64,000 nt of DNA, taken from the IMG/VR virus record IMGVR_UViG_3300027902_000006, positions 1 to 64,000 of that record; one strand, given 5' to 3'. The position numbers were made by a program, and so were the translations under genes. Below, one piece after another: positions 1 through 10,254 of this stretch. Under the pieces are notes generated by a model. The model did no database searches and was not told the DNA's origin. It worked only from the letters and a program-made list of their open reading frames with translations. This stretch comes from a virus. Position 1 is the stretch's first letter; each line of letters starts with the position of its first letter.

Positions 1-33
1 CTAGCCTCCCTGTCCCTTGCCTCGGGTGCTGCC

Positions 34-231
34 TCAAAATTCGAGGTGAGCTGCATCCGCTTTTCCCAAGATTAAGTGCGCTTTCTCTAGCCACTTTGCT
101 CGCCCTGCGAGATTGCCATTTGGTGAGAAGGCCCAGGATGGGGTTCCGGCCCCAAAAGGAGTTTGAAGTCCTCTGCGTACATCCTGCCTCCGGGAGCTGG
201 CAAAGCCCCGCTTTTTTGGCTGATATGGCAT
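34..231 (-). CDS. hypothetical small protein (possible early gene)
   Basis: 65-aa ORF starting inside the GT/AC-free stretch 181-347; AGGGGG just upstream; no recognisable motif. Confidence 0.35.
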   Translation of the reverse strand: MPYQPKKRGFASSRRQDVRRGLQTPFGAGTPSWAFSPNGNLAGRAKWLEKAHLILGKADAAHLEF

Positions 232-347
232 TGCCCCCTGAGAGATGGAATAGAATCATGGGCTAAAGCTATCATATCCCCCAGCCCTTGCATATCAGGC
301 TTTCCCTGATTTTTCAATTTTTTTTCTAAGGGATATCCCCTAGGGGC
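181..347. other. GpT/ApC-free island 1
   Basis: Read base by base: no GT or AC between the GTAC at 177-180 and the AC at 348-349. Confidence 0.9.
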
Positions 348-436
348 ACCCCCTGGATTGCCTGTTATACGAATAGATGATTACCTTTACATGAACTGAA
401 ACTATTATATGAACTATTACCACGTTACTTCTATCA

Positions 437-606
437 TTCCCCTGTTTCCCCTGGTTGTATGCGTTGTATGCGTTGTATTCCCCTGTTTCCCCGTATCTCC
501 GTTGTATTCGTTGTATTCCCCGTTGTATGCGTTGTATGCGTTGTATTCCCCGTTGTATTCCTAGTATTCCTTAGTAGGGGTTGTATCCGTTGTATTCCCC
601 TGTTTC
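437..606 (+). repeat. GTTGTAT-core degenerate tandem repeat (~11 copies)
   Basis: GTTGTAT followed by GC, TC or TCCCC, interspersed with CCCCTGTTTCCCC. Confidence 0.9.
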
Positions 607-838
607 CCCCGAAGGGGGTCGCCATGTAAGTCAGGAAAGATTACCCTAACACTACCAATACACCCCAAACAACCAGCATATACAAGTAAGTCCCACTCCA
701 TCACCCAGGGATTCACGGGCTTACATCGGCAGCACATTCATACACAGTCGTATACGGGCTATTAGGAGTATGACCCCCAGATTTAGGGATTCACGGGGCT
801 TTACGTAAGTATGTATTGCAGACACACAACTGGAAGCA

Positions 839-2130
839 GGTGCTTTTATGTTTCGTGTATATCAGTATGTATTTAAGGAAGTGCGTCTTAGGGGAGCTGG
901 GAGTATGTTTATAGGTAAGTAAGTCCCCCCAGGCACAAAGACTTAGTATACTTAGCTATGTGGGGACTATATGAAACTGACTCCCACATCAATTAAAATC
1001 GGGTATTACGGAGTACTCCTGAAACTTGATTTACTTTGTTTGTGCGTGGTTCGGAGTTTAGAGATGGAAGTTTACCCGTACCGAAAAACCTCATTACACT
1101 TGCGGTATCTATTAAACTTTAATATCTTGTGATACAGGAACGCTGTTTATAGGTAAGTAAGTCCCCCAGCGCTTAATACTTACTTACGGTGCTCCAGAAG
1201 GGACGACATACACGCACTTTGCTACTCGCTATTGAAATTATACTATTGCGTTCTATGACAGAGATTCGCGTATCTGTTTATCTATAACTGTCTTCGCTTC
1301 GTCATAGTCTGTCTTAGCGTCCTTGAGACTTACGCTAAAAGGGCTATTGCATCTAGTACATTCGTAATGCAATATAGGTTGCTCAGTTAGTTCTTGGAGC
1401 ATAATAACCCTATTGTGGTATTTCTCAGGAATCCGTCCCCGGTATATCCACGTGTGTACCGTAGACTGATCTACCCCAAGTATTCTACCGATCTCACTGA
1501 TACTTAAAACGCCTGAAACTAACCATTTCAACATATACGTTCTCCCATGCAATAGTATTATTTCTCTACTGAGTATACAAGTATTTGATTGATGCAATAG
1601 AGTTATCTTATCATAGTTTGAGTGGGTATGCAATTCCTATATCGCATAGAATTTTTACGTATACGTACCACGTACGTAAGTACGTATCGCAAGACACACG
1701 TCGGATACACCTATTTTGTCTTTCGTAGTACGTTTGTATATAAATAAATAAGTAAGTCTTCTACAGAAAGGAACATACGCTAGGACGTACCTACTTACAT
1801 CGCCCCAGAAGCACCCTGTAAGTTTCTACGTATGTAAGTAAGTCCCCCAGCGCTGGAAACTAACTCAGAGACGAACATACTTACACCCACTGGGGACGTA
1901 CAAACTTACACGACAAAAAACAACAGTCGGATACACCTCTTTTGTGTTTCGTGTATATCAGTAAGTCAGTCGGTCGCCGTTGGAATGAGGTGCTTTTGTG
2001 TTTCGTGTAGCTAAGTAAGTAGGGGGTTCCCCGATGTCGGGCTGGGGAGTTCCCCTAGGTCGTAAGTAGGGGGTTCCCCGATGTTTGAGTAGGGAGTCCC
2101 CTTAGGGTGTCCCCTGTAAGTAAGTATGTC
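839..2130 (+). repeat. dispersed direct repeats in a largely non-coding region
   Basis: GTAAGTAAGTCCCCC near 915, 1153 and 1834; TGTTTCGTGTATATCAGTA near 849 and 1945; GTCGGATACACCT near 1700 and 1926; GTAAGTAGGGGGTTCCCCGATGT at 2015-2037 and 2062-2084. Confidence 0.8.
1253..1534 (-). CDS. helix-turn-helix DNA-binding protein with C-terminal CxxC
   Basis: ISEIGRILGVDQSTVHTWIYRG HTH pattern; start moved to ATG 1534 (GGGAGA RBS upstream). Confidence 0.7.
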   Translation of the reverse strand: MLKWLVSGVLSISEIGRILGVDQSTVHTWIYRGRIPEKYHNRVIMLQELTEQPILHYECTRCNSPFSVSLKDAKTDYDEAKTVIDKQIRESLS

Positions 2131-2133
2131 CCC

Positions 2134-2192
2134 CAGCGTTTCCCTGAGGTTCATGTCAGCGTTTCCCTGAGGTTCATGTCAGCGTTTCCCTG
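2134..2192 (+). repeat. 23-bp tandem repeat x2.5 (CAGCGTTTCCCTGAGGTTCATGT)
   Basis: copies start at 2134, 2157 and 2180 (partial). Confidence 0.95.
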
Positions 2193-2499
2193 CGTCTCGT
2201 CTCGTCGCGTTCGTCTCGTGCGTCGCGTGGCGTGCGTCTCGTCGCGTCCGTCTCGTCGCGTTCGTCTCGTGCGTCGCGTGGCGTGCGTCTCGTCCCGTCT
2301 CGTCGCGTCCGTCTCGTCGCGTCCGTCTCGTGGCGTGCGTCTCGTCGCGTCGCGTCTCGTGGCGTCTCGTGGCGTCCGTCTCGTGGCGTCCGTCTCGTTC
2401 GTCTCGTGGCGTCCGTCTCGTGCGTCTCGTGGCGTCCGTCTCGTTCGTCGCGTGGCGTCCGTCGCGTTCGTCGCGTGGCGTGCGTCTCGTCCCGTCTCC
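2182..2499 (+). repeat. adenine-free (CGT-N1-2)n low-complexity array
   Basis: 318 nt with no A on the + strand; units CGTCT/CGTCG/CGTGG/CGTG/CGTC/CGTT, roughly 65 units. Confidence 0.95.
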
Positions 2500-2603
2500 A
2501 TAGGGGCGTTCCCTTAGGGGCTGGCCCCCAGAGCGCCCAGGGTGTTCCCCTAGGGAAAAGCCCGATAAAAAAATTGAATTTTCGATATAAATTCCTGGCC
2601 TAT

Positions 2604-2622
2604 ATCAAGATCCATGCCAAGC
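2604..2622 (-). promoter_or_regulatory. leftward sigma54-like element (GCTTGGCATGGATCTTGAT), non-canonical -12
   Basis: shares GCTTGGCATGG with the rightward promoter; GG-N10-GA instead of GG-N10-GC. Confidence 0.35.
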
Positions 2623-2777
2623 CCGCAAAGCAAGCAATGGCGCAGCTTTCCCAAAAGGGGGCAAAATCTAGAAAAAAATAATATCAAAATGAGAAAATAG
2701 CTATATATCTAGCCATCTAGCGCCCACCCCCCAGCCCGCAAAGCAAGCAATAGCTAGGGGCTGGGGAAAAGGCGCGC

Positions 2778-2795
2778 TTGGCATGGCCTATGCAA
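2778..2795 (+). promoter_or_regulatory. sigma54 (-24/-12)-type promoter TTGGCATGGCCTATGCAA
   Basis: GG(2780-81)-N10-GC(2792-93) with TGGCA core, about 50 bp upstream of the likely ATG at 2846. Confidence 0.6.
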
Positions 2796-2845
2796 TAGAT
2801 AAGGGCAAGATGCAAGCATATCCCAAAAAAAGGATGGAAAAGAAA

Positions 2846-3277
2846 ATGGCAAAGCAGATTAAGGCGCAGGAGATTCTGGCGGAAGCGGCTGCTGATTATC
2901 AAAGCGGCTTGGCAATGGAAGCGGCCCAGATGGATTATCAAGCTGATATGCGCCGCGAAGCGGCCCAGCTTGAGGAAAAGGCAGCAGCAGAGCGGCAAGC
3001 GCGAGAAGCGGCAGCCATCAAAATTCTGCCCCAGAATAAGAGCGGCCGCGGCAAGATGGGCAGCAGATTCTTAGCCAATGGGAAAAGCGAAAATGGATTC
3101 TTGCTCTCTGCGGGCAGCGGCCAGATTGATAAAGCCTATATGGAATATAGGAGAGGGAAGGGGCGCTTCCCGAGCATGGCTGAGGCTGCTGCCATGCTTG
3201 CCCCCCTTGGCCTATCGGAAAAGGATATCCTTATCCATATCCGATTCTATCAGCGGCATAGGGGGCTTTATATCTAA
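2846..3277 (+). CDS. Val/Thr-free hypothetical protein: coiled coil plus possible C-terminal winged HTH
   Basis: ORF track gives 2783..3277; the 2783 ATG lies inside the promoter, so 2846 (AAGGATGG upstream) is preferred; C-terminal GRFPSMAEAAAMLAPLGLSEKDILIHI resembles LexA-type wHTH; perfect hairpin follows. Confidence 0.75.
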   Translation: MAKQIKAQEILAEAAADYQSGLAMEAAQMDYQADMRREAAQLEEKAAAERQAREAAAIKILPQNKSGRGKMGSRFLANGKSENGFLLSAGSGQIDKAYMEYRRGKGRFPSMAEAAAMLAPLGLSEKDILIHIRFYQRHRGLYI

Positions 3278-3288
3278 GGAATAGCCCC

Positions 3289-3332
3289 TAGGGGAAGCCC
3301 CGATGGAGGATCGGGGCTTCCCCTATCTCTTT
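3289..3332 (+). terminator. perfect 16-bp hairpin, probable intrinsic terminator
   Basis: TAGGGGAAGCCCCGAT-GGAGG-ATCGGGGCTTCCCCTA followed by TCTCTTT. Confidence 0.7.
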
Positions 3333-3579
3333 GCCCTAATTTCTAAGGGTTTCCCCTAAGCAGTTCCCCTGACCCAGCCTAAGAGTTTCCCCTATCCTAT
3401 CAGGAGTCCCCTTAGTATTCTTCTAGGGAGTTTCCCCAAGTATGTGCTAGGGGAGTCCCCTATGTTGTGTAGGGGAGTCCCTGATAGCCAAATCCGAGTT
3501 TCGATGTGGCCCCCGGCAACATAGTACCTCAGTAAGTTGTTTGCGTCTGGGAAAACTTTCTCAAGTGCTCAAGTGCCCC

Positions 3580-4545
3580 TCACAAGTCAAGAGGAAACTG
3601 ATCCAATTGTTTATACGATGTGCTCTTCGTAACCATAGGTCGGTTGCGACATTGCGCCCCACAATACTTATGCTTTTCCCAAGTGTATTCTTTTTCATAA
3701 CGTTCTCTACCGAAAGGATTTCCACAGTTTTGACAGTACTTTATCTCAACGTATCCCAACTGATCCCGATACCTCTTACCGGAGGTCTTCATTTTTCTGC
3801 TCTTAAGTGATCTACTTAGATTACGTCTATGTTCTATAGAAAGCGGTTTACCTTTATGTCCTTTCGAGTAGTTTAGTTGAGAAAGGCTTTGTTTCTTCTT
3901 GTGCTCTTCTGATGTAACTAGAACTCTACCGGCACAACGCCGACAAAGTCCAGTCTTGCCTACTGCATGGGGAACTAACTTGCCGCAGTCTTTGCACCAG
4001 AATATGATACTGTACATCTTACGATTAGCGTCTTTCCTACACTTGTCACTACACCAACGACGTTTTTCCCAAGCTACCTTTCCCTTTCTACGACAGTTTC
4101 CAAAAACCTTTCCGCAGTAGTCGCAATATTTAATCTCTGTAGAGGTTCGGTAGAACAAGATTAATTGATCTCGGTCTGCTTGACTAAGTTCACTTCCGCC
4201 AGATAGGATATTAGTTAAGCAACCTCCATCCGCTTTGCGTCCGTAGAGAGCAATGATCCTCTCTTCTAAGTCATATGCTTCTTGTTCGGACAAATTAGAG
4301 GTATAAATTGTCTCTTCAAAATCTAAACCACGGTCCCAGAGGTAGTAGATTACATTTATTTTATGGGGGTTGTCTATGAAACGTAGATCTTCGGTTCTTC
4401 GAAACTTCTTAGCCTGTTCCCTATGGTTTTTGAGCCGTTGTTGTTGTCCCTTTCCAACATAGAAAGGCATTGATTGTGTAGAGTCAAGAGGATCGACTTG
4501 ATCGGGTCTCCGTAAGATATAAACGTAATGAACATTTTTAGTCAT
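3580..4545 (-). CDS. GIY-YIG (LEM-3-like) homing-type endonuclease with Zn-finger and NUMOD3-like motifs
   Basis: YVYIL...PFYVGKG...R..H; repeated YCxxCG..F..WCSxxC motifs; LSIEHRRNLSRSLK. Confidence 0.75.
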   Translation of the reverse strand: MTKNVHYVYILRRPDQVDPLDSTQSMPFYVGKGQQQRLKNHREQAKKFRRTEDLRFIDNPHKINVIYYLWDRGLDFEETIYTSNLSEQEAYDLEERIIALYGRKADGGCLTNILSGGSELSQADRDQLILFYRTSTEIKYCDYCGKVFGNCRRKGKVAWEKRRWCSDKCRKDANRKMYSIIFWCKDCGKLVPHAVGKTGLCRRCAGRVLVTSEEHKKKQSLSQLNYSKGHKGKPLSIEHRRNLSRSLKSRKMKTSGKRYRDQLGYVEIKYCQNCGNPFGRERYEKEYTWEKHKYCGAQCRNRPMVTKSTSYKQLDQFPLDL

Positions 4546-4645
4546 AGATTTATAATATCATATTACCTAACCGGTACGAAAATACGTAGGAAAAGGGCGC
4601 CTCAATTTTTTTTGGACCCTCTGTACAAATACTTGTTATGCAGGT

Positions 4646-4678
4646 TTTTCTTGGTTTCCTTAGTCTTAGCTATTATGA
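4646..4678 (+). promoter_or_regulatory. sigma70-like promoter of the virion operon
   Basis: TTGGTT-N17-TATGAT upstream of terS. Confidence 0.4.
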
Positions 4679-4703
4679 TAGGAAAGTAAGAGAGGTTGTG
4701 GTT

Positions 4704-5213
4704 ATGTCTACGTCGTGTACGGGAACAAAAGGTAAAGTTATTGGTATTAGAAAGAATATCAAACCTCCTACTAAAAGAGATTCAGTAGCGACACATATTT
4801 TGAAGAGTTGGGAACCTAGTGAGAAAGAACGTTATGCCGTACGCATAATGGTTGCTGGTGGGATGAAACAAGATGACATTGCCAAATGTATTCATCCACA
4901 GGGACCGATTTCAGTCAGTACGCTAAAACGTAAATTTCCAGAAGAGATTTCTCACGGACGAGCGGACATCACAAAACAGGTTATTTCCGTTCTGACGGAG
5001 ATGGCTCTTAACGGTAGGAATCCGGGCGCGACGATGTTTTGGTTAAAGACGCAAGCTGGTTGGAAGGAGACTAATGGGCTTGGAAGTAGTATCGGTAATT
5101 CCAAGTTTGGAACTAATTTAAGTGCGACGGAAGAGATTACGAAGAAACTTCAGAACACAGCCAAGTTTGCTGCCGAAACCCTTCCTAGATGCAAGACAGG
5201 TACAGGGGACTAA
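4704..5213 (+). CDS. terS: terminase small subunit (HTH)
   Basis: ISVSTLKRKFPEEI...ATMFWLKTQAGWKE pattern; upstream of terL; GAGAGG RBS before ATG 4704. Confidence 0.7.
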   Translation: MSTSCTGTKGKVIGIRKNIKPPTKRDSVATHILKSWEPSEKERYAVRIMVAGGMKQDDIAKCIHPQGPISVSTLKRKFPEEISHGRADITKQVISVLTEMALNGRNPGATMFWLKTQAGWKETNGLGSSIGNSKFGTNLSATEEITKKLQNTAKFAAETLPRCKTGTGD

Positions 5214-5399
5214 ATGACTAATATCTTAGACTTATCTAACAAACTTGCTGAAAAGTGCAGCATAGATTATTATGACTCCATCGACCTGTTAGAAGCTCTG
5301 TTAGACCTCAAAGAGAATCAGATGATGTTCGTAAGTAATATTCGAGGTGAGTTACGTTACGAGATTGTTCCAGCACGTCGGTTCTTTATTGATTTATGA
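5214..5399 (+). CDS. hypothetical protein
   Basis: coupled to both neighbours. Confidence 0.55.
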   Translation: MTNILDLSNKLAEKCSIDYYDSIDLLEALLDLKENQMMFVSNIRGELRYEIVPARRFFIDL

Positions 5400-6574
5400 T
5401 CGCCTTAATAGACACTGCTCCTAAGAAGGATATAAAGACGGTCAACTTAGGTTTGGAACTCGTCAAAGCGGAGATGAACGCAGATGTCTATCACTGGTCA
5501 GACTCAGTGGATGTTTCCAAGTACGAGACAATCGCCTTTAATACGTACTACGTTATGCATAATAAGAACATTATTCGCTTCCTTAAAAAACACGATTGTA
5601 CTGGGAAAAGACTCCTGACAGGTGGTCAAGGAGTCCGTGATTGGGTCGAGACAGAAATCTTCTTAGGTGAGTACGACGGAGATGTTGTAGACAAGCACGG
5701 TTTTCATCGAGCGTCTGAGTTAATATCTCCTCCTGTCATACATGGACCCAGAGCTGTATTGGAAATGACACGAGGTTGTAAGTATCGTTGTCATTTTTGT
5801 GAGTATGGCTGTTGGCAAGGTGGGAAGTATCGAGAGAAGGAGATCGGACTCGTCCTAGAACAACTCAAGGAACTTAAGTTGAAGGGCGTGAAGACAGTTA
5901 ATCTGTTCTCAGTCAATCTAGGTGGTCACAGTCAAATACAAGAGTTGTTTGATTACAGAGAACTAATTCTCCTTTGTACAGGGTGCACACTTAAAGACGT
6001 TAAAAATGTCATGCCCTTTTTAAAACATCGGCCATATGTGAGAGTAGGTATAGAGACATTTGATGAGCGTACTCGCAAACGTTTATCTCCTGGTAAGTTC
6101 GTCTCCGACGACAAGATGTTAGAAATCTTTGATTATCTCTTTCAACATGTCAATTATGTTTTTATCTATCTCATTTATGGACTACCCAAAGACAACTATC
6201 AGGCATGGTTTGACTGGGTCAAGAAGTTGGCCGTTCTCAGACAGAACCATACAAAGATAAAGTCGAAGAAGATTTTGTTTTTTGATGATGTGGAGACAGT
6301 GACATACGACCGGAACATCCGCGTAGACTTTTCTATTAGCTCTCTTGAACCGTTGCCTCATACACCTCTAGAAGGGGCTCCACTTGTAGATTTTGTCAAG
6401 CGCCAAGAGTTTCTCAAAGAGTGGTTGCCATGTCTTAAGGAGTATGGATTTAGGAAGACTGACACTGGAGGAGGTAGACTCGGGCGAGGAGAGGTGTCTT
6501 ACCTTGAGGCACTTAGATTGAAGGGAGTTGTTGAAGAACACGGAATGTTAAAGAGATCTGATGCCAAAACGTAG
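5396..6574 (+). CDS. radical SAM enzyme (class B/B12-type-like, short N-terminal domain)
   Basis: EMTRGCKYRCHFC CxxxCxxC; VGIETFDE; YLIYGLP. Confidence 0.85.
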   Translation: MIALIDTAPKKDIKTVNLGLELVKAEMNADVYHWSDSVDVSKYETIAFNTYYVMHNKNIIRFLKKHDCTGKRLLTGGQGVRDWVETEIFLGEYDGDVVDKHGFHRASELISPPVIHGPRAVLEMTRGCKYRCHFCEYGCWQGGKYREKEIGLVLEQLKELKLKGVKTVNLFSVNLGGHSQIQELFDYRELILLCTGCTLKDVKNVMPFLKHRPYVRVGIETFDERTRKRLSPGKFVSDDKMLEIFDYLFQHVNYVFIYLIYGLPKDNYQAWFDWVKKLAVLRQNHTKIKSKKILFFDDVETVTYDRNIRVDFSISSLEPLPHTPLEGAPLVDFVKRQEFLKEWLPCLKEYGFRKTDTGGGRLGRGEVSYLEALRLKGVVEEHGMLKRSDAKT

Positions 6575-8033
6575 TTACGGGGAAGGTCCGGCCCAAGGAG
6601 GACGTCCGAAGAAGCAGGACTACTTAACTCTGCGTTGGACGAAGATGCGTCCACACGATGAGCAGCGTCGCTACTGTGAGTCTGCTTCTCGATTCAAAGT
6701 TGTCCCTGCCGGTAGGAGAAGTGGAAAAACTGAACTTGCCAAACGTAAGTTAGTTATTAGAGCACTCGATCCTTTTAGTACAAACATGTTACCTCTCCCC
6801 TCCAAGTTCACTAGTCCTCGATACTTCTTCGGTGCTCCTATCTGGTCTCAGGCCAAACGCATCTTTTGGTACGATATTAAGTCCATGATTCCTGAGTGGG
6901 CATATAATCCAGATTCACGTCGTGGAGTAAGTGAGTCTGAAATGAACATCAGACTAAAGTCTGGTGCCGAGATCTGGGTTATTGGTATGGATAAGCCAGA
7001 GCGTATTGAAGGTACTCCTTGGGATGGGGGAGTGCTAGATGAGTACGGTAACATGAAATCTCGTACTTGGCCAGAGCACGTACGTCCCGCCCTCTCTGAT
7101 AGATTAGGTTGGTGTGATTTTATCGGTGTTCCCGAAGGGAGGAATCATTATTGGGACTTAGCAGAAGTTGCCAAACGTGTTGCGGAAGAAGCAGCGTTAA
7201 AAGATATAGTTCCTGAATGGGACTATTTTCATTGGAAGAGTTCTGAGATTCTTCCAGCTCACGAAATAGAGAGCGCTAAGAACGATCTTGACCCTTTAAC
7301 CTTCGCCCAGGAATTTGAAGGCTCGTTCGTACATTTCCAAGGAAGAGTGTATTATCCCTTCGAACAGAAGGTTCATTGTCGTCCCTTACAATACGATCCG
7401 TCCCAACCTCTAATAATATGTTTTGACTTCAACATTTCTCCGGGCGTGGCTGTCATTTGTCAAGAACAACAACTTCCAGGTGTATCTGAACCGGTTTATG
7501 ATGAAAGAAGGAATGAAACATATTATAATCCCGTTATCGGTACAGGAGTTATCGCAGAAGTCTTCATTCCTAAGAATAGTAACACAGTCGCTGTCTGTAA
7601 CAGGTTGATTCAGGATTGGGCAAACCATAAAGGTGATGTACATGTCTATGGTGATGCAACGGGTGGTGCAGGAGGATCAGCTCAGACAGAAGGTTCAGAC
7701 TGGGACATTGTGAGAAAGATGTTTAAAGACAAGTGGAAACGTATTTATTACTTTATTCCAACTACTAATCCGAGAGAGAGGGCTAGAGTCAATGCGGTAA
7801 ACTCTAGATTAATGTCAACTACTGGTGTGGTAAGAATGGTCATAGATGCTGACAAGTGTCCTAACGTTGTTAAAGATTTTGAGGGTACTAGATTACTTGA
7901 AGGGGGGTCAGGAGAGATTGATAAGAGAGCCACTCCTGATCTTACCCATATGACAGACGCTCTGGGCTATTACGTGTGTTATCGTTATCCAGTTGAAGAA
8001 CTGGTAGGTAGGAGTATAGAACTATTATGGTAA
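6561..8033 (+). CDS. terL: terminase large subunit
   Basis: Walker A AGRRSGKT, Walker B GGVLDE, nuclease DFN...DATG...HMTDALGY. Confidence 0.95.
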   Translation: MPKRSYGEGPAQGGRPKKQDYLTLRWTKMRPHDEQRRYCESASRFKVVPAGRRSGKTELAKRKLVIRALDPFSTNMLPLPSKFTSPRYFFGAPIWSQAKRIFWYDIKSMIPEWAYNPDSRRGVSESEMNIRLKSGAEIWVIGMDKPERIEGTPWDGGVLDEYGNMKSRTWPEHVRPALSDRLGWCDFIGVPEGRNHYWDLAEVAKRVAEEAALKDIVPEWDYFHWKSSEILPAHEIESAKNDLDPLTFAQEFEGSFVHFQGRVYYPFEQKVHCRPLQYDPSQPLIICFDFNISPGVAVICQEQQLPGVSEPVYDERRNETYYNPVIGTGVIAEVFIPKNSNTVAVCNRLIQDWANHKGDVHVYGDATGGAGGSAQTEGSDWDIVRKMFKDKWKRIYYFIPTTNPRERARVNAVNSRLMSTTGVVRMVIDADKCPNVVKDFEGTRLLEGGSGEIDKRATPDLTHMTDALGYYVCYRYPVEELVGRSIELLW

Positions 8034-8314
8034 GTAGTAATATTGTTAATCTTCAAGACTATCGCAAAGCTCAGATTTGTCATATCACGGGTGAGGCAAG
8101 GTGTTTAGAATGTTTTTTTGAGTGGGTCGCCACTGAACCCCAAGGGACTAGATTTATAGAATGTCCAAGTTGTGGGTGTTATAAGGGAACGTTTGCAGCT
8201 CAAGTTGAGATAGATTGTCCTCATTGGACGTGTAATTGTGGAAATTCGCTATTCTACGCTACGGAGGATGGGATGTACTGTCCTATGTGCGGTTTGTTCC
8301 AGAACGGGTTCTAG
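8027..8314 (+). CDS. Cys-rich zinc-ribbon protein
   Basis: multiple CxxC/CxC motifs. Confidence 0.6.
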   Translation: MVSSNIVNLQDYRKAQICHITGEARCLECFFEWVATEPQGTRFIECPSCGCYKGTFAAQVEIDCPHWTCNCGNSLFYATEDGMYCPMCGLFQNGF

Positions 8315-8326
8315 AAGGAGTGGTTA

Positions 8327-8593
8327 ATGGATTTTGACTATGGGATTTCATTTTGTGCAGGTAACGAGGAGTTGTGGAAAAAGGACGCAACTGTAGCAGA
8401 CCTTATTGCTATTTTGAAAGAGTTCCCATCCGACTTACGGATCAGTGCATTTTTTGATTGTAGAGTGGATAACGGAAATAATGTAGTATATATAGAAGAT
8501 AAACGTACTACGTCACTGGTCGATATTGTTTTGGAGTGCCCGATGTGTAGTCAACATCTGAAACTTCAACCCAATGATCACATTATCAACTGA
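8327..8593 (+). CDS. hypothetical protein
   Basis: AAGGAG RBS; C-terminal CPMC. Confidence 0.6.
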   Translation: MDFDYGISFCAGNEELWKKDATVADLIAILKEFPSDLRISAFFDCRVDNGNNVVYIEDKRTTSLVDIVLECPMCSQHLKLQPNDHIIN

Positions 8594-8601
8594 GGTTTGT
8601 C

Positions 8602-10254
8602 ATGGCTATTCTGAAAGACTGGTTAACTGGGGAAACAATAGTTGAGACTAAGATATCGAAAATTTCAACTATTGATGTTCCCCTTATGGGTTCACCCGCT
8701 CCATCTGGAGTAGAAATACCTCGAAAGGAGTATGTCGAGCATCAGGAACGACTCGATCTGATTACATCTCTTTTGGGTGGGACAAAGGCTATGAAAGAAG
8801 CCGGTCAAAAGTTCCTTCCAAAAGAGACGAAGGAAAGTGATGAGAACTATCAGAATCGCCTAAGACGAACGTATCTCTTTAATGCTTTCGGGAGAACCGT
8901 CTCTTATCTGGGTGGCCAAGTTTTTACGCAACCTGTTAAGTTACTGGCTGATGTCCCCTCTGCTATCAGGACAACTAAGACACAAGACGGTTATGAAGAA
9001 GATATAGACTTGAAGGGTAGCAATCTAGATGCTTTTCTTAAACCTGTTTTTGAGAGAGGTGTTTCAGATGGCGTTTCGTGCGTACTCGTAGATTATCCCC
9101 AAGGAACATATCTCGGTACTATTTCTGTAGCCGACGAAAAGAGAATAGGACGTCGGCCTTACTGGGTTCATCTTCCTCCTTCCTCAATCATAGGATGGAA
9201 GACAGAAATCGTAAGTGGTAAAACTCTTTTTACCCAATTACGTATCCGAGAGACTGAAGAAGTTGACGACGGTCAGTTTGGGGTCAAGCAAGTAAATCGT
9301 ATACGAGTTTTAGAACCTAGGCGATGGACGCTCTACGAAGAGCAAAAAGATGAACAGATCAACCAGATGAAGTGGGTTGTAATAGGTGCGGGTCCTACAA
9401 CTCTAGACATAATCCCGTTGGCTGTCTTTATGCCAGGTAAAACGATCTCTGCTCTTACTGCTGAACCTCCTTTGGATGACTTGGCATATATGAACTTGGC
9501 TCACTGGCAGAGTACTAGTGACCAGATGAACATTCTCCATTTTACTCGTTTACCTATTCTCTTCGGTAGAAAACTTACAGACTCGGATAAAATAGACCAG
9601 ATTGAGATCGGACCTAACAGGATGATTCACTCCGATAGTCTAGAAGGGGATCTTAAGTATGTAGAACACACTGGGAAGTCTATTGCTGAGGGTCATATGC
9701 ACCTCATAGACTTAGAGACTAAGATGGCCATGTGGGGTTTACAACTTCTGATGCCCAAGACTGGTACGATTACGGCCACTGAAAAAGCATTGTCCTCGGG
9801 GGAGAGTGATAGTACTCTCAAATCTTGGGCACTCCTCTTCACTGATTTTATTGAACAATGCCTGTTCTTCACTGCCTTGTACATGAGAGAAGAACGGGGA
9901 GGAGCTGCTGAAGTCAATACTCAATTCCGCTGGATGCAGACGCTTGATGCTGAGGTTCTATTGCGTGGTGCTCAACTTAGGGTACTTCCTGGTCAGTTGG
10001 TCTTTGAAGAACTCCAACGGCGTGCGATTATCAGTGACCAGTACGATTACGCTGATCTTCAGTCAATGTTCGACGAAGAGAATCGCGGCTTAACTTTTGC
10101 TAAAGGAAGTTTTGGAAACATCGCTCAAACGGTTCTAAGTCCCGGAACAACACGTACTCCAACTTCGACATCGGTGACTGCCACTCGCGCTCAATCTGGG
10201 ACTGGGACTCCCTATTCATTTAAACGTGGCCACGGAACAAAAGGTACTCCGTAA
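8602..10254 (+). CDS. portal protein (DUF4055-like)
   Basis: GGTKAMK...FLPK...E..ENYQNRL, PPLDDLAYMNLAHWQSTSD; position after terL. Confidence 0.9.
   Translation: MAILKDWLTGETIVETKISKISTIDVPLMGSPAPSGVEIPRKEYVEHQERLDLITSLLGGTKAMKEAGQKFLPKETKESDENYQNRLRRTYLFNAFGRTVSYLGGQVFTQPVKLLADVPSAIRTTKTQDGYEEDIDLKGSNLDAFLKPVFERGVSDGVSCVLVDYPQGTYLGTISVADEKRIGRRPYWVHLPPSSIIGWKTEIVSGKTLFTQLRIRETEEVDDGQFGVKQVNRIRVLEPRRWTLYEEQKDEQINQMKWVVIGAGPTTLDIIPLAVFMPGKTISALTAEPPLDDLAYMNLAHWQSTSDQMNILHFTRLPILFGRKLTDSDKIDQIEIGPNRMIHSDSLEGDLKYVEHTGKSIAEGHMHLIDLETKMAMWGLQLLMPKTGTITATEKALSSGESDSTLKSWALLFTDFIEQCLFFTALYMREERGGAAEVNTQFRWMQTLDAEVLLRGAQLRVLPGQLVFEELQRRAIISDQYDYADLQSMFDEENRGLTFAKGSFGNIAQTVLSPGTTRTPTSTSVTATRAQSGTGTPYSFKRGHGTKGTP

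Follow-up and report, generated by a model that had tools for sequence, protein, structure and literature searches.

Organization of the locus and extent of the GT/AC purge

We analyzed a 64,000-nucleotide window, positions 1-64,000 of the uncultured phage record IMGVR_UViG_3300027902_000006 (140,478 bp in full), in which a gene-sized cassette beside the packaging genes is almost devoid of the dinucleotides GT and AC. The record is classed as linear and ~92% complete and is therefore probably a metagenome contig. Its plus-strand arm extends from ~2.8 kb to 54 kb and carries a small-terminase-like gene, the large terminase gene, the portal gene (8602), and structural genes, and its minus-strand arm extends from 140,471 down to 54 kb and carries genes for replication and nucleotide metabolism. 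Given this layout, positions 1-3570 are where the two gene arms diverge, a region that is mostly noncoding and packed with repeats. It holds the purged cassette (the right island), a shorter purged zone that faces the minus-strand arm (the left island), and a repeat-rich core of 2.2 kb between them (Table 1).

An initial annotation of this DNA had reported near-zero GT and AC over 803 bp, with sharp edges, and had placed the constraint at the level of double-stranded DNA; we confirmed the first two statements and found support for the third. At the genome rate of 0.120 per position, 96.6 GT and AC dinucleotides are expected in the right island, while only the single AC is present (Poisson P(≤1) of ~1e-40), and GT reappears immediately outside it, at 2544 on one side and 3349 on the other. 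The three longest GT/AC-free runs of the whole genome (623, 182, and 169 bp) all lie within this region, with the next longest at 57 bp, and the 623-bp run is 7.7 times the expected maximum gap. A genome-wide scan found no peer of the right island except the left one, and none of the other dinucleotide classes shows anything comparable in the genome apart from the adenine-free CGT tract at 2176-2500. Elsewhere, the observed/expected ratio of GT/AC is 0.99 in coding DNA and 1.02 across 65 intergenic regions. A general mutational decay of GT is thereby excluded, since the ratio for the genome is ~1.0 with intergenic DNA included.

All four GTN and all four NGT trinucleotides are purged from the island. 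On one strand, GTG is the context of the lone AC and of edge positions 348 and 2542, while the edge GT at 2544 reads GTT. Judging from this GTG context of the survivors, the avoided word may be GT not followed by G.

Table 1. Coordinates of the features discussed. Positions refer to the window unless another sequence is named.
Feature	Position	Strand	Remarks
14-mer CTAGCCTCCCTGTC at contig start	1-14		Candidate cohesive-end or terminus sequence
Zone without GT[A/C/T] or its complement	13-142		0 versus ~12.8 expected; 5 GT/AC, all GTG
Left GT/AC-free island	181-347	-	Faces outward to the minus-strand arm; 169-bp run between AC at 179 and 348
Left boundary box	320-356		Arm of inverted repeat I1, with 2537-2573
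GTTGTAT[G/T]C array	434-609	+	GT-dense on the plus strand; 10 of 12 exact genome copies here
Gene for 126-aa helix-turn-helix protein	1253-1633	-	In the GT/AC-rich core; Pfam HTH_17, E = 8.5e-6, just under the curated cutoff
Adenine-free CGT-rich array	2176-2500	+	GT every 4-5 nt; GT+AC 2.1 times expectation
Right boundary box	2537-2573		Contains the final GTs (2542 and 2544)
Right GT/AC-free island, whole cassette	2546-3348		803 bp; GT count 0, AC count 1 (2726-27)
AAAAAAATTGAAT element upstream of the gene	2567-2579	+	Present in own cassette, L020/L021, and L022
Putative sigma54-type promoter element TGGCATGGCCTATGCA	2779-2794	+	-24 GG and -12 GC correctly spaced; 10 of 12 positions
Predicted gene, 164 aa	2783-3277	+	No Val, no Thr; alternative start at 2846 (143 aa)
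Terminator-like hairpin	3289-3325	+	Perfect 16-bp stem, weak T-tract; -35.8 kcal/mol, z = -3.6
GGG(G)-N-CCC(C) box array	3347-3482		Cores contain GT (AGT, TTT preceded by G)
Landmark AGCCAAATCCGAGTTTCG	3486-3503	+	Also borders the cassette region on its right in L020 and L024
Small-terminase-like gene	4638-5213	+	54% identical to its L024 counterpart
Large terminase gene	6561-8033	+	78% identical to L024 3727-5199; anchor for synteny comparisons
Predicted Mom-family (GNAT-type) gene	genome 80853-81548		PF25680, E = 3.3e-29, 102 bits versus a cutoff of 27
Predicted DpdA (TGT-family DNA transglycosylase), 275 aa	genome 98587-99414	-	phrog_887, E = 3.6e-47
GA/TC-free islands of terminase relatives	L093 8352-9132; L095 8182-9114; L100 8065-9107; L102 1079-2038; L033 95-599		Terminase identity 51-58%

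The purged gene and its product

The initial annotation had also proposed that the purge was paid for in protein, and codon usage bears this out. Complete absence of Val and Thr from the 164-amino-acid (aa) open reading frame (ORF) has a probability of ~1e-10, given that the two residues make up 13% of the proteome, and Tyr, Asp, Asn, and His are encoded exclusively by TAT, GAT, AAT, and CAT. The genome favors GGT/GGA for Gly and AGT for Ser, whereas this ORF uses GGC for 8 of 13 Gly codons (11% in the genome) and AGC for 6 of 8 Ser codons (22% in the genome), a shift from GGT and AGT that is as expected from in-place GT-to-GC changes. An excess of Ala, considered as a further trace of Val and Thr replacement, was withdrawn because unpurged homologs also contain 14-18% Ala. 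When sequences with the composition of the island were simulated, a frame of this length appeared in 0.6% of cases, and, judged by its sequence, the ORF is a real gene.

The predicted protein is basic (pI 9.8) and has no match in Pfam or PHROG. In its AlphaFold2 model (mean pLDDT of 72), a disordered linker connects a long helix with a C-terminal three-helix bundle, whose pLDDT is 72-82. Structures resembling the bundle were sigma region 4 and LexA, at TM scores of 0.5-0.6 and weak Foldseek E values above 0.4, and the modeled bundle thus bears a weak resemblance to a helix-turn-helix (HTH) domain. We also considered the ORF as a paralog of the neighboring HTH gene, but detected no relationship between the two.

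Homologs of the cassette in other phages

An exhaustive phmmer search recovered three homologs of the ORF (E values of 4e-23, 3e-9, and 1e-4), and profile-based searches added two further loci. We refer to these homologous loci as L020 to L025, with L020 and L021 treated together, and to the cassette of this genome as own. Several other searches yielded little: megablast of positions 1-9000 against phages gave no match, a word-index protein search returned only the ORF itself, two exact DNA-word scans gave chance matches only, and locus searches by the terminase, the radical SAM protein, and the first minus-arm gene each gave one distant locus or none. A first set of terminase homologs (L001 and L006 to L009) contained no island, with L009 starting too near the terminase to cover the cassette position, which makes this result uninformative.

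Two of the homologous loci are purged like the cassette itself. L020/L021 has at least 1,116 bp without GT or AC and encodes a 212-aa protein without Val or Thr, while L024, whose gene order around the terminase genes is the same as here (identities in Table 1), has 712 bp without GT or AC at the start of its contig and encodes a 163-aa protein, likewise without Val or Thr. The proteins of the three purged loci are 31-58% identical to each other, and the absence of GT and AC has therefore been held through extensive sequence change. Both the purge and its conservation are solid observations. On the other hand, the more distant homologs L022, L023, and L025 have normal GT/AC and 11-12% Val plus Thr, and protein comparison does not group the purged members into a clean clade. 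Since the three distant homologs are normal and the two closer loci are purged, we read the purge from these sequences as a lineage-specific trait. The initial annotation had named orthologous loci of normal GT/AC content as evidence against its idea. The distant homologs are such loci, but L020/L021 and L024 keep the purge, and the idea is not refuted.

The cassettes have a common layout, in which box arrays, an A-run followed by TTGAAT, and TTGGCATGGCnnnTGCAATA precede the gene, and a strong hairpin, further boxes, and the landmark GCCAAATCCnGGTTT follow it. Boxes of the GGG(G)-N-CCC(C) type are enriched 22-fold in positions 1-3600, and the equivalent boxes in L020 and L024 (GGGATTCCCC and GGGAATCCCC) are without GT. 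In L022, the unpurged cassette is flanked at 170-330 and 1070-1500 by CCACTAGAC-type repeat arrays instead of GGG-N-CCC boxes. The flanking repeats therefore change along with the protein, as would be expected were they its binding sites, and the boxes GGGGAGTCCCC and GGGGAAGCCCC may be candidate binding sites for the 164-aa protein.

The putative promoter is one of five matches in the genome that reach at least 10 of 12 positions of the sigma54-type element, and the only intergenic one. Because TTGGCATGGCnnnTGCAATA is common to the own cassette, L020, and L022, that is, to two purged loci and one unpurged locus, the comparison supports the proposal in the initial annotation of a sigma54-like promoter. 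Its conservation in the unpurged locus also shows that TGGCAT, in place of TGGCAC, is not a product of the purge. Promoters of the sigma54 type require an activator, and no PF00158 match for a cognate activator was found in the phage. A scan for sigma70-type promoters gave hits no more frequent than in shuffled sequence, no conserved 8-mer promoter motif was present in either gene arm, and Rfam, preQ1 riboswitches included, gave no family at E < 0.69.

These homologs also bear on whether the island could be an assembly chimera or a technical artifact. Although the record is probably a metagenome-derived contig, the purged cassette is found in three other independent assemblies, the repeat families are common to the island and its flanks, and chimerism cannot produce a dinucleotide-free ORF. 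We therefore consider the chance of an artifact to be negligible.

GT/AC palindromes escape genome-wide avoidance

Six-base palindromes are strongly avoided in this genome, with no GGATCC (17 expected), no GAGCTC (14.5 expected), no GCATGC (10 expected), and a single ATCGAT (28 expected), which implies hosts rich in restriction systems. The 16 six-base palindromes that contain GT/AC are exempt, with a mean log2 observed/expected of -0.17 compared to -1.14 for the remaining ones. By GC class, GT/AC palindromes stand at -0.27 versus -1.94 for the rest when four letters are G or C, and at -0.07 versus -0.59 in the further class. None of 20,000 GC-stratified permutations matched this difference (p < 5e-5), GT/AC is the only exempt class among the ten dinucleotide classes, and the exemption persists unchanged without the first 4 kb. 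Four-base palindromes showed no GT/AC effect, and the phages CAjan, iggy, and ZHS showed neither an AC/GT palindrome exemption nor islands. An exemption of this kind would result from a protective mark at GT/AC and so supports such a mark indirectly. As a separate observation, one of the genome's three CGGCCG sites and one of its three GCGCGC sites fall within the island.

The same pattern helps in judging whether the constraint might act on RNA, with the transcript avoiding AC/GU read by an mRNA-targeting toxin or enzyme (MazF-type ACA cutters or CmdT-like). A purge that spans the transcription unit would fit this explanation. However, GT and AC are both missing on the same strand, and the purge also covers the DNA upstream of the promoter, the second island, the boxes up- and downstream in L020, and the downstream boxes in L024. 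Since selection on the transcript would in addition leave the genome-wide palindrome pattern unexplained, we regard it as very improbable.

Candidate enzymes for a GT/AC mark

The genome encodes a predicted DpdA that is ~32% identical to annotated phage DpdAs (tblastn) and a preQ1 pathway consisting of FolE, QueD, QueE, QueC, and QueF. The corresponding Pfam matches are GTP_cyclohydroI (7.7e-56), PTPS (2e-26), Fer4_12/Radical_SAM (the fold expected of QueE), QueC (8e-62), and QueF (1e-31). The deazaguanine gene cluster also holds a methyltransferase gene and a ParB-like gene; the latter (genome 101664-102761; L003 17664-18761, minus strand) encodes a protein with a ParB N-terminal domain that may be the counterpart of bacterial DpdB, the partner of DpdA. 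The ancestral tRNA enzyme of DpdA acts on G in a UGU context.

Characterized phage DpdAs recognize motifs of two or three letters, with most or nearly all sites modified; the iggy enzyme marks GA at ~97% of sites and that of CAjan marks GA plus GGC (PMC10484667, PMC7544227). Such DpdA-dependent 7-deazaguanine systems (PMC7544227, PMC10484667, PMC6884629, PMC10516641) are close counterparts of the predicted DpdA and preQ1 pathway of this genome. Their mark shields sites containing the two-letter motif from restriction enzymes, which matches the exemption of GT/AC palindromes observed here. The putative system described here differs in that its DpdA has only ~32% identity to the characterized enzymes, its GT motif would be one not yet reported, and it comes with a motif-free island, which CAjan and iggy lack.

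A Mom-family protein is the second candidate. Mom of phage Mu marks SAS sites (PMC13219725), placing N6-carbamoylmethyl-adenine there in a Gly-tRNA-dependent manner (PMC13219725, PMC7261163), and its mark is post-replicative, context-specific, restriction-blocking, and made on double-stranded DNA. The island retains 42 SAS sites on both strands, lacking only those that contain AC, and a Mu-like Mom therefore does not explain the purge; an altered specificity, for A before C, would have to be assumed.

Thymidine hypermodification was set aside as unlikely, since the genome encodes ThyX and no ThyA-like protein (no match to PF00303). The thymidine idea had been prompted by a family A DNA polymerase with an N-terminal uracil-DNA glycosylase (UDG) domain (genome 91941-94607; L003 7941-10607, minus strand). 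Such UDG-polymerase fusions have reportedly been linked in recent papers to N4-like, SPO1-like, and SP-15-like phages, some of them with modified thymidine.

Terminase relatives carry islands free of GA and TC

Among 80 terminase relatives, we found five loci with GA/TC-free islands of 0.5-1.0 kb (Table 1). Four of these (L093, L095, L100, and L102) lie ~1 kb upstream of the terminase, and each holds an ORF of ~170-200 aa without Asp or Glu, except for a single Asp in one member. These ORFs were also considered as homologs of the 164-aa family, and no homology was detected. In the two larger GA/TC-island genomes, palindromes with GA/TC form the class most exempt from avoidance (p = 0.015 and 0.020), and the purged word is therefore the exempt word in 3 of 3 genomes, own included. 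In the same scan, long GC-rich tandem repeats directly upstream of the terminase at L059 (2044-2785) and L061 (1336-1880) caused spurious AT-, TA-, and AC/GT-free runs.

We tentatively suggest that, in tailed phages with terminases of this clade, a cassette the size of a gene, located next to the packaging genes or the genome end, is kept free of the dinucleotide that the phage's own modification system recognizes, GT/AC here and GA/TC in several relatives, as a general "unmarked island" device. For this genome, the central proposal of the initial annotation, namely a bulky mark at GT/AC that stops host RNA polymerase, is supported in part: GT/AC is probably a DNA-modification target, as suggested by the palindrome exemption, DpdA with the preQ1 pathway, the Mom-family protein, and the matching words of the relatives.

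The proposed polymerase block fared differently. If the mark blocked host RNA polymerase, only the island would be transcribed from incoming DNA, and its product would unlock the remaining genome. The purge of a whole unit, terminator included, and a product that resembles a DNA-binding regulator would suit this idea, and heavily T-hypermodified phage DNA can stop foreign DNA polymerases (PMC12686479). However, all other genes and the 65 intergenic regions have normal GT/AC, and CAjan and iggy are marked yet have no island. An activator-dependent promoter would also be odd for a first gene, and no phage RNA polymerase turned up among the scanned ORFs, for which no dedicated search was run. Major-groove modifications, 7-deazaguanine derivatives among them, are not known to halt RNA polymerase. 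Altogether, a polymerase block appears improbable.

Repeats around the islands and a probable genome end

Each of the two islands starts at one arm of the inverted repeat I1, whose 37-nt arms are 76% complementary and carry an A-run plus TTGAA on their outward sides. The core between the islands is enriched in GT/AC (352 versus ~265 expected), and the enrichment sits in arrays that are absent elsewhere in the genome: GTTGTAT[G/T]C, GTAAGTAAGTCCCCC, the CGT tract, and a TACGTA cluster. The CGT tract (325 bp) is composed of CGT units with spacers of 1-2 nt, is without AT at 2176-2500 and without TA at 2125-2501, and ends ~45 bp before the right island.

Primases of the T7 and T4 types start primers (pppAC) on template 5'-GT. 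The islands could accordingly be zones beside an origin where GT-free duplex is unprimable on either strand, with the GT-dense arrays as priming hot spots. In favor of this, the islands flank a repeat-rich core that is a possible origin, and the phage encodes a DnaB-like helicase and a weak match to a DnaG zinc ribbon. On the other hand, known primases read trinucleotides, yet the GTN and NGT sets are purged in full, and neither the palindrome exemption nor the GA/TC islands of the relatives would be explained. We judge the chance that priming accounts for the purge to be remote.

The last 14 bases of an unrelated metagenome contig, Ga0209048_10002077, are identical to CTAGCCTCCCTGTC, while the flanking DNA does not align. 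Since the two contig extremities share this sequence and have unalignable flanks, we read window position 1 as a probable cohesive-end site, which would place both islands within 3.4 kb of the terminase-side end. L025, from the same contig, starts with the reverse complement of CTAGCCTCCCTGTC, which contains a GGGAGG ribosome-binding site well placed for the minus-strand gene starting at genome position 140471. Directly beside the 14-mer, L025 has a GT/AC-free run of 175 bp (61-236).

By analogy with phage lambda, packaging would begin at the terminase-side end, and this end, with the cassette, would be the last to enter the cell, which speaks against a role as the first DNA in. The claim of the initial annotation that the cassette is the first gene to be transcribed is difficult to maintain on this ground and also in view of the sigma54-type promoter, which needs an activator.

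An island that would stay unmarked

We propose that the island is a stretch unable to receive a modification at GT/AC that the rest of the genome seems to carry, a reading that we hold with moderate confidence. The phage would probably modify a base at every 5'-GT-3' step of either strand (GT and AC on one strand), with the mark weaker or absent where G follows GT. The leading candidate enzyme is DpdA, which would place a preQ1-type 7-deazaguanine at the G of GT, followed by a Mom-like protein that would act on the A of AC. Selection may have cleared GT/AC from the complete cassette beside the packaging genes, including upstream elements, promoter, gene, and terminator, and likewise from the shorter promoter-side zone across the GT/AC-rich repeat core. 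Island DNA would then remain plain DNA irrespective of any marking elsewhere in the genome. As our best guess at the benefit, the cassette, the box arrays, and probably the nearby genome end may form a protein-DNA control region that is read identically by host and phage proteins on marked virion DNA and on fresh unmarked DNA. The sequences themselves show the purge, its conservation in diverged orthologs, its protein cost, the special standing of GT/AC across the genome, and the presence of genes for the candidate enzymes. The existence of the mark, its enzyme, and the benefit of staying unmarked are what we infer, and two independent lines of evidence support the mark indirectly.

Several observations weigh against this proposal. 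In addition to the three homologs with normal GT/AC and the lack of a clean purged clade, the boxes flanking the island contain GT in this genome, which is awkward if binding sites need to be unmarked. The 42 retained SAS sites mean that the island may still bear other marks. The palindrome exemption might reflect which restriction enzymes the hosts happen to have, and the palindrome signal in CAjan and iggy is in the right direction but not significant. Both of these phages have a DpdA with a known GA motif, yet no GA/TC-free island. Finally, a GA/TC-free island is also present in the complete 60-kb relative G001, in which neither DpdA nor Mom was detectable and which has a ThyA-family gene instead. 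The island strategy is therefore apparently independent of the chemistry, and the assignment of DpdA as the enzyme in our phage is weak.

The main competing explanation, which we consider unlikely, is that a host defense such as a Type IV nuclease or a glycosylase attacks the modified base, so that a markless cassette stays intact and transcribable and its product or DNA aids survival. It shares the evidence for GT/AC marking and would account for a purge of the whole unit, from promoter to terminator, rather than of binding sites only. Fragmentation of 7-deazaguanine-containing phage DNA by the glycosylases Dag1 and Dag2 is proportional to how densely the DNA is modified (bioRxiv 10.1101/2025.10.29.685425). 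However, the phage would not survive cuts elsewhere in its genome unless its DNA entered stepwise, and the cassette end, if lambda is a guide, likely enters last. The product is basic and DNA-binding-like, in contrast to known nuclease inhibitors or DNA mimics, and the dependence of its promoter type on an activator is a further difficulty.

We also weighed avoidance of a factor that reads unmodified GT/AC, either a frequent-cutting nuclease or nickase or a context-specific double-stranded DNA deaminase, of host or phage origin, from which the cassette would be safe even when unmodified, for example, when newly replicated. Total site removal is typical of the avoidance of cutting enzymes, Chlorella viruses pair frequent cutters with matching modification, the UDG domain of the phage polymerase would fit, and the evidence for GT/AC shielding elsewhere in the genome applies here too. 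On the other hand, there is no candidate for a GT-specific enzyme and no clear reason why this cassette alone would need modification-independent safety, and we find this explanation quite unlikely.

Relation to known systems and implications

Our literature searches found no description of motif-free islands. The closest parallels to an unmarked cassette are the first-step-transfer DNA of T5 and the early region of T7, in which early-entering DNA is without restriction sites. As in those phages, a defined, self-contained region near a probable genome end is free of a short word and is followed by a repeat array. Unlike in T5 and T7, the word here is a dinucleotide and is probably the phage's own modification target rather than a host restriction site, the protein has been recoded, and the cassette adjoins the end on its terminase side, from which early entry may be unlikely. 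Restriction-site avoidance in phages likewise acts on double-stranded DNA and selects against short words. Classical avoidance, however, is genome-wide and concerns sites of 4-6 bp, whereas here a dinucleotide is wholly removed locally while words that contain it escape avoidance across the genome. A third parallel is the control of P1 pac cleavage and of Escherichia coli oriC by Dam methylation of clustered GATC sites. There, modifiable sites are densely clustered next to regions that control packaging or replication, much like the GT-dense arrays (CGT, GTTGTAT, and TACGTA) next to the islands, and we know of no gene-sized site-free zone in the P1 pac or oriC systems.

If the unmarked-island device is real, these phages would keep deliberate holes in their protective DNA modification, so strictly that proteins lose two amino acids. 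This would be a new kind of genome feature, pointing to a step of infection or packaging that needs plain DNA. The purged word would also reveal a phage's modification motif from sequence alone and, in this genome, would predict a DpdA with a new GT specificity or a Mom with a new AC specificity. Combined with the palindrome-exemption test, it would give modification motifs from metagenomic sequence without the phage in hand. In addition, a family of small, possibly DNA-binding proteins is picked out, together with the box arrays, as likely parts of a control region beside the terminase genes.

Neighboring genes and other observations

Between the island and the small-terminase-like gene, window positions 3580-4545 (minus strand) hold a gene for a GIY-YIG endonuclease with DUF2256 zinc ribbons. 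It is probably a mobile insertion, and its position in L024 is occupied by other small minus-strand ORFs. A radical SAM enzyme gene at 5396-6574, without a PHROG match, runs into the beginning of the large terminase gene; in L024, another gene occupies this position. Gly-tRNA is the co-substrate of Mom enzymes (PMC13219725). At L002 13439-13514 (position ~77.4 kb of the genome), ARAGORN predicted a tRNA with the anticodon CTA (an amber suppressor, labeled Pyl), beside two tRNA-Gly genes. Many of the clade's large-terminase homologs (P0005, P0007, P0010 to P0012, P0016, P0020, and P0033) are 600-850 aa long and contain intein domains.

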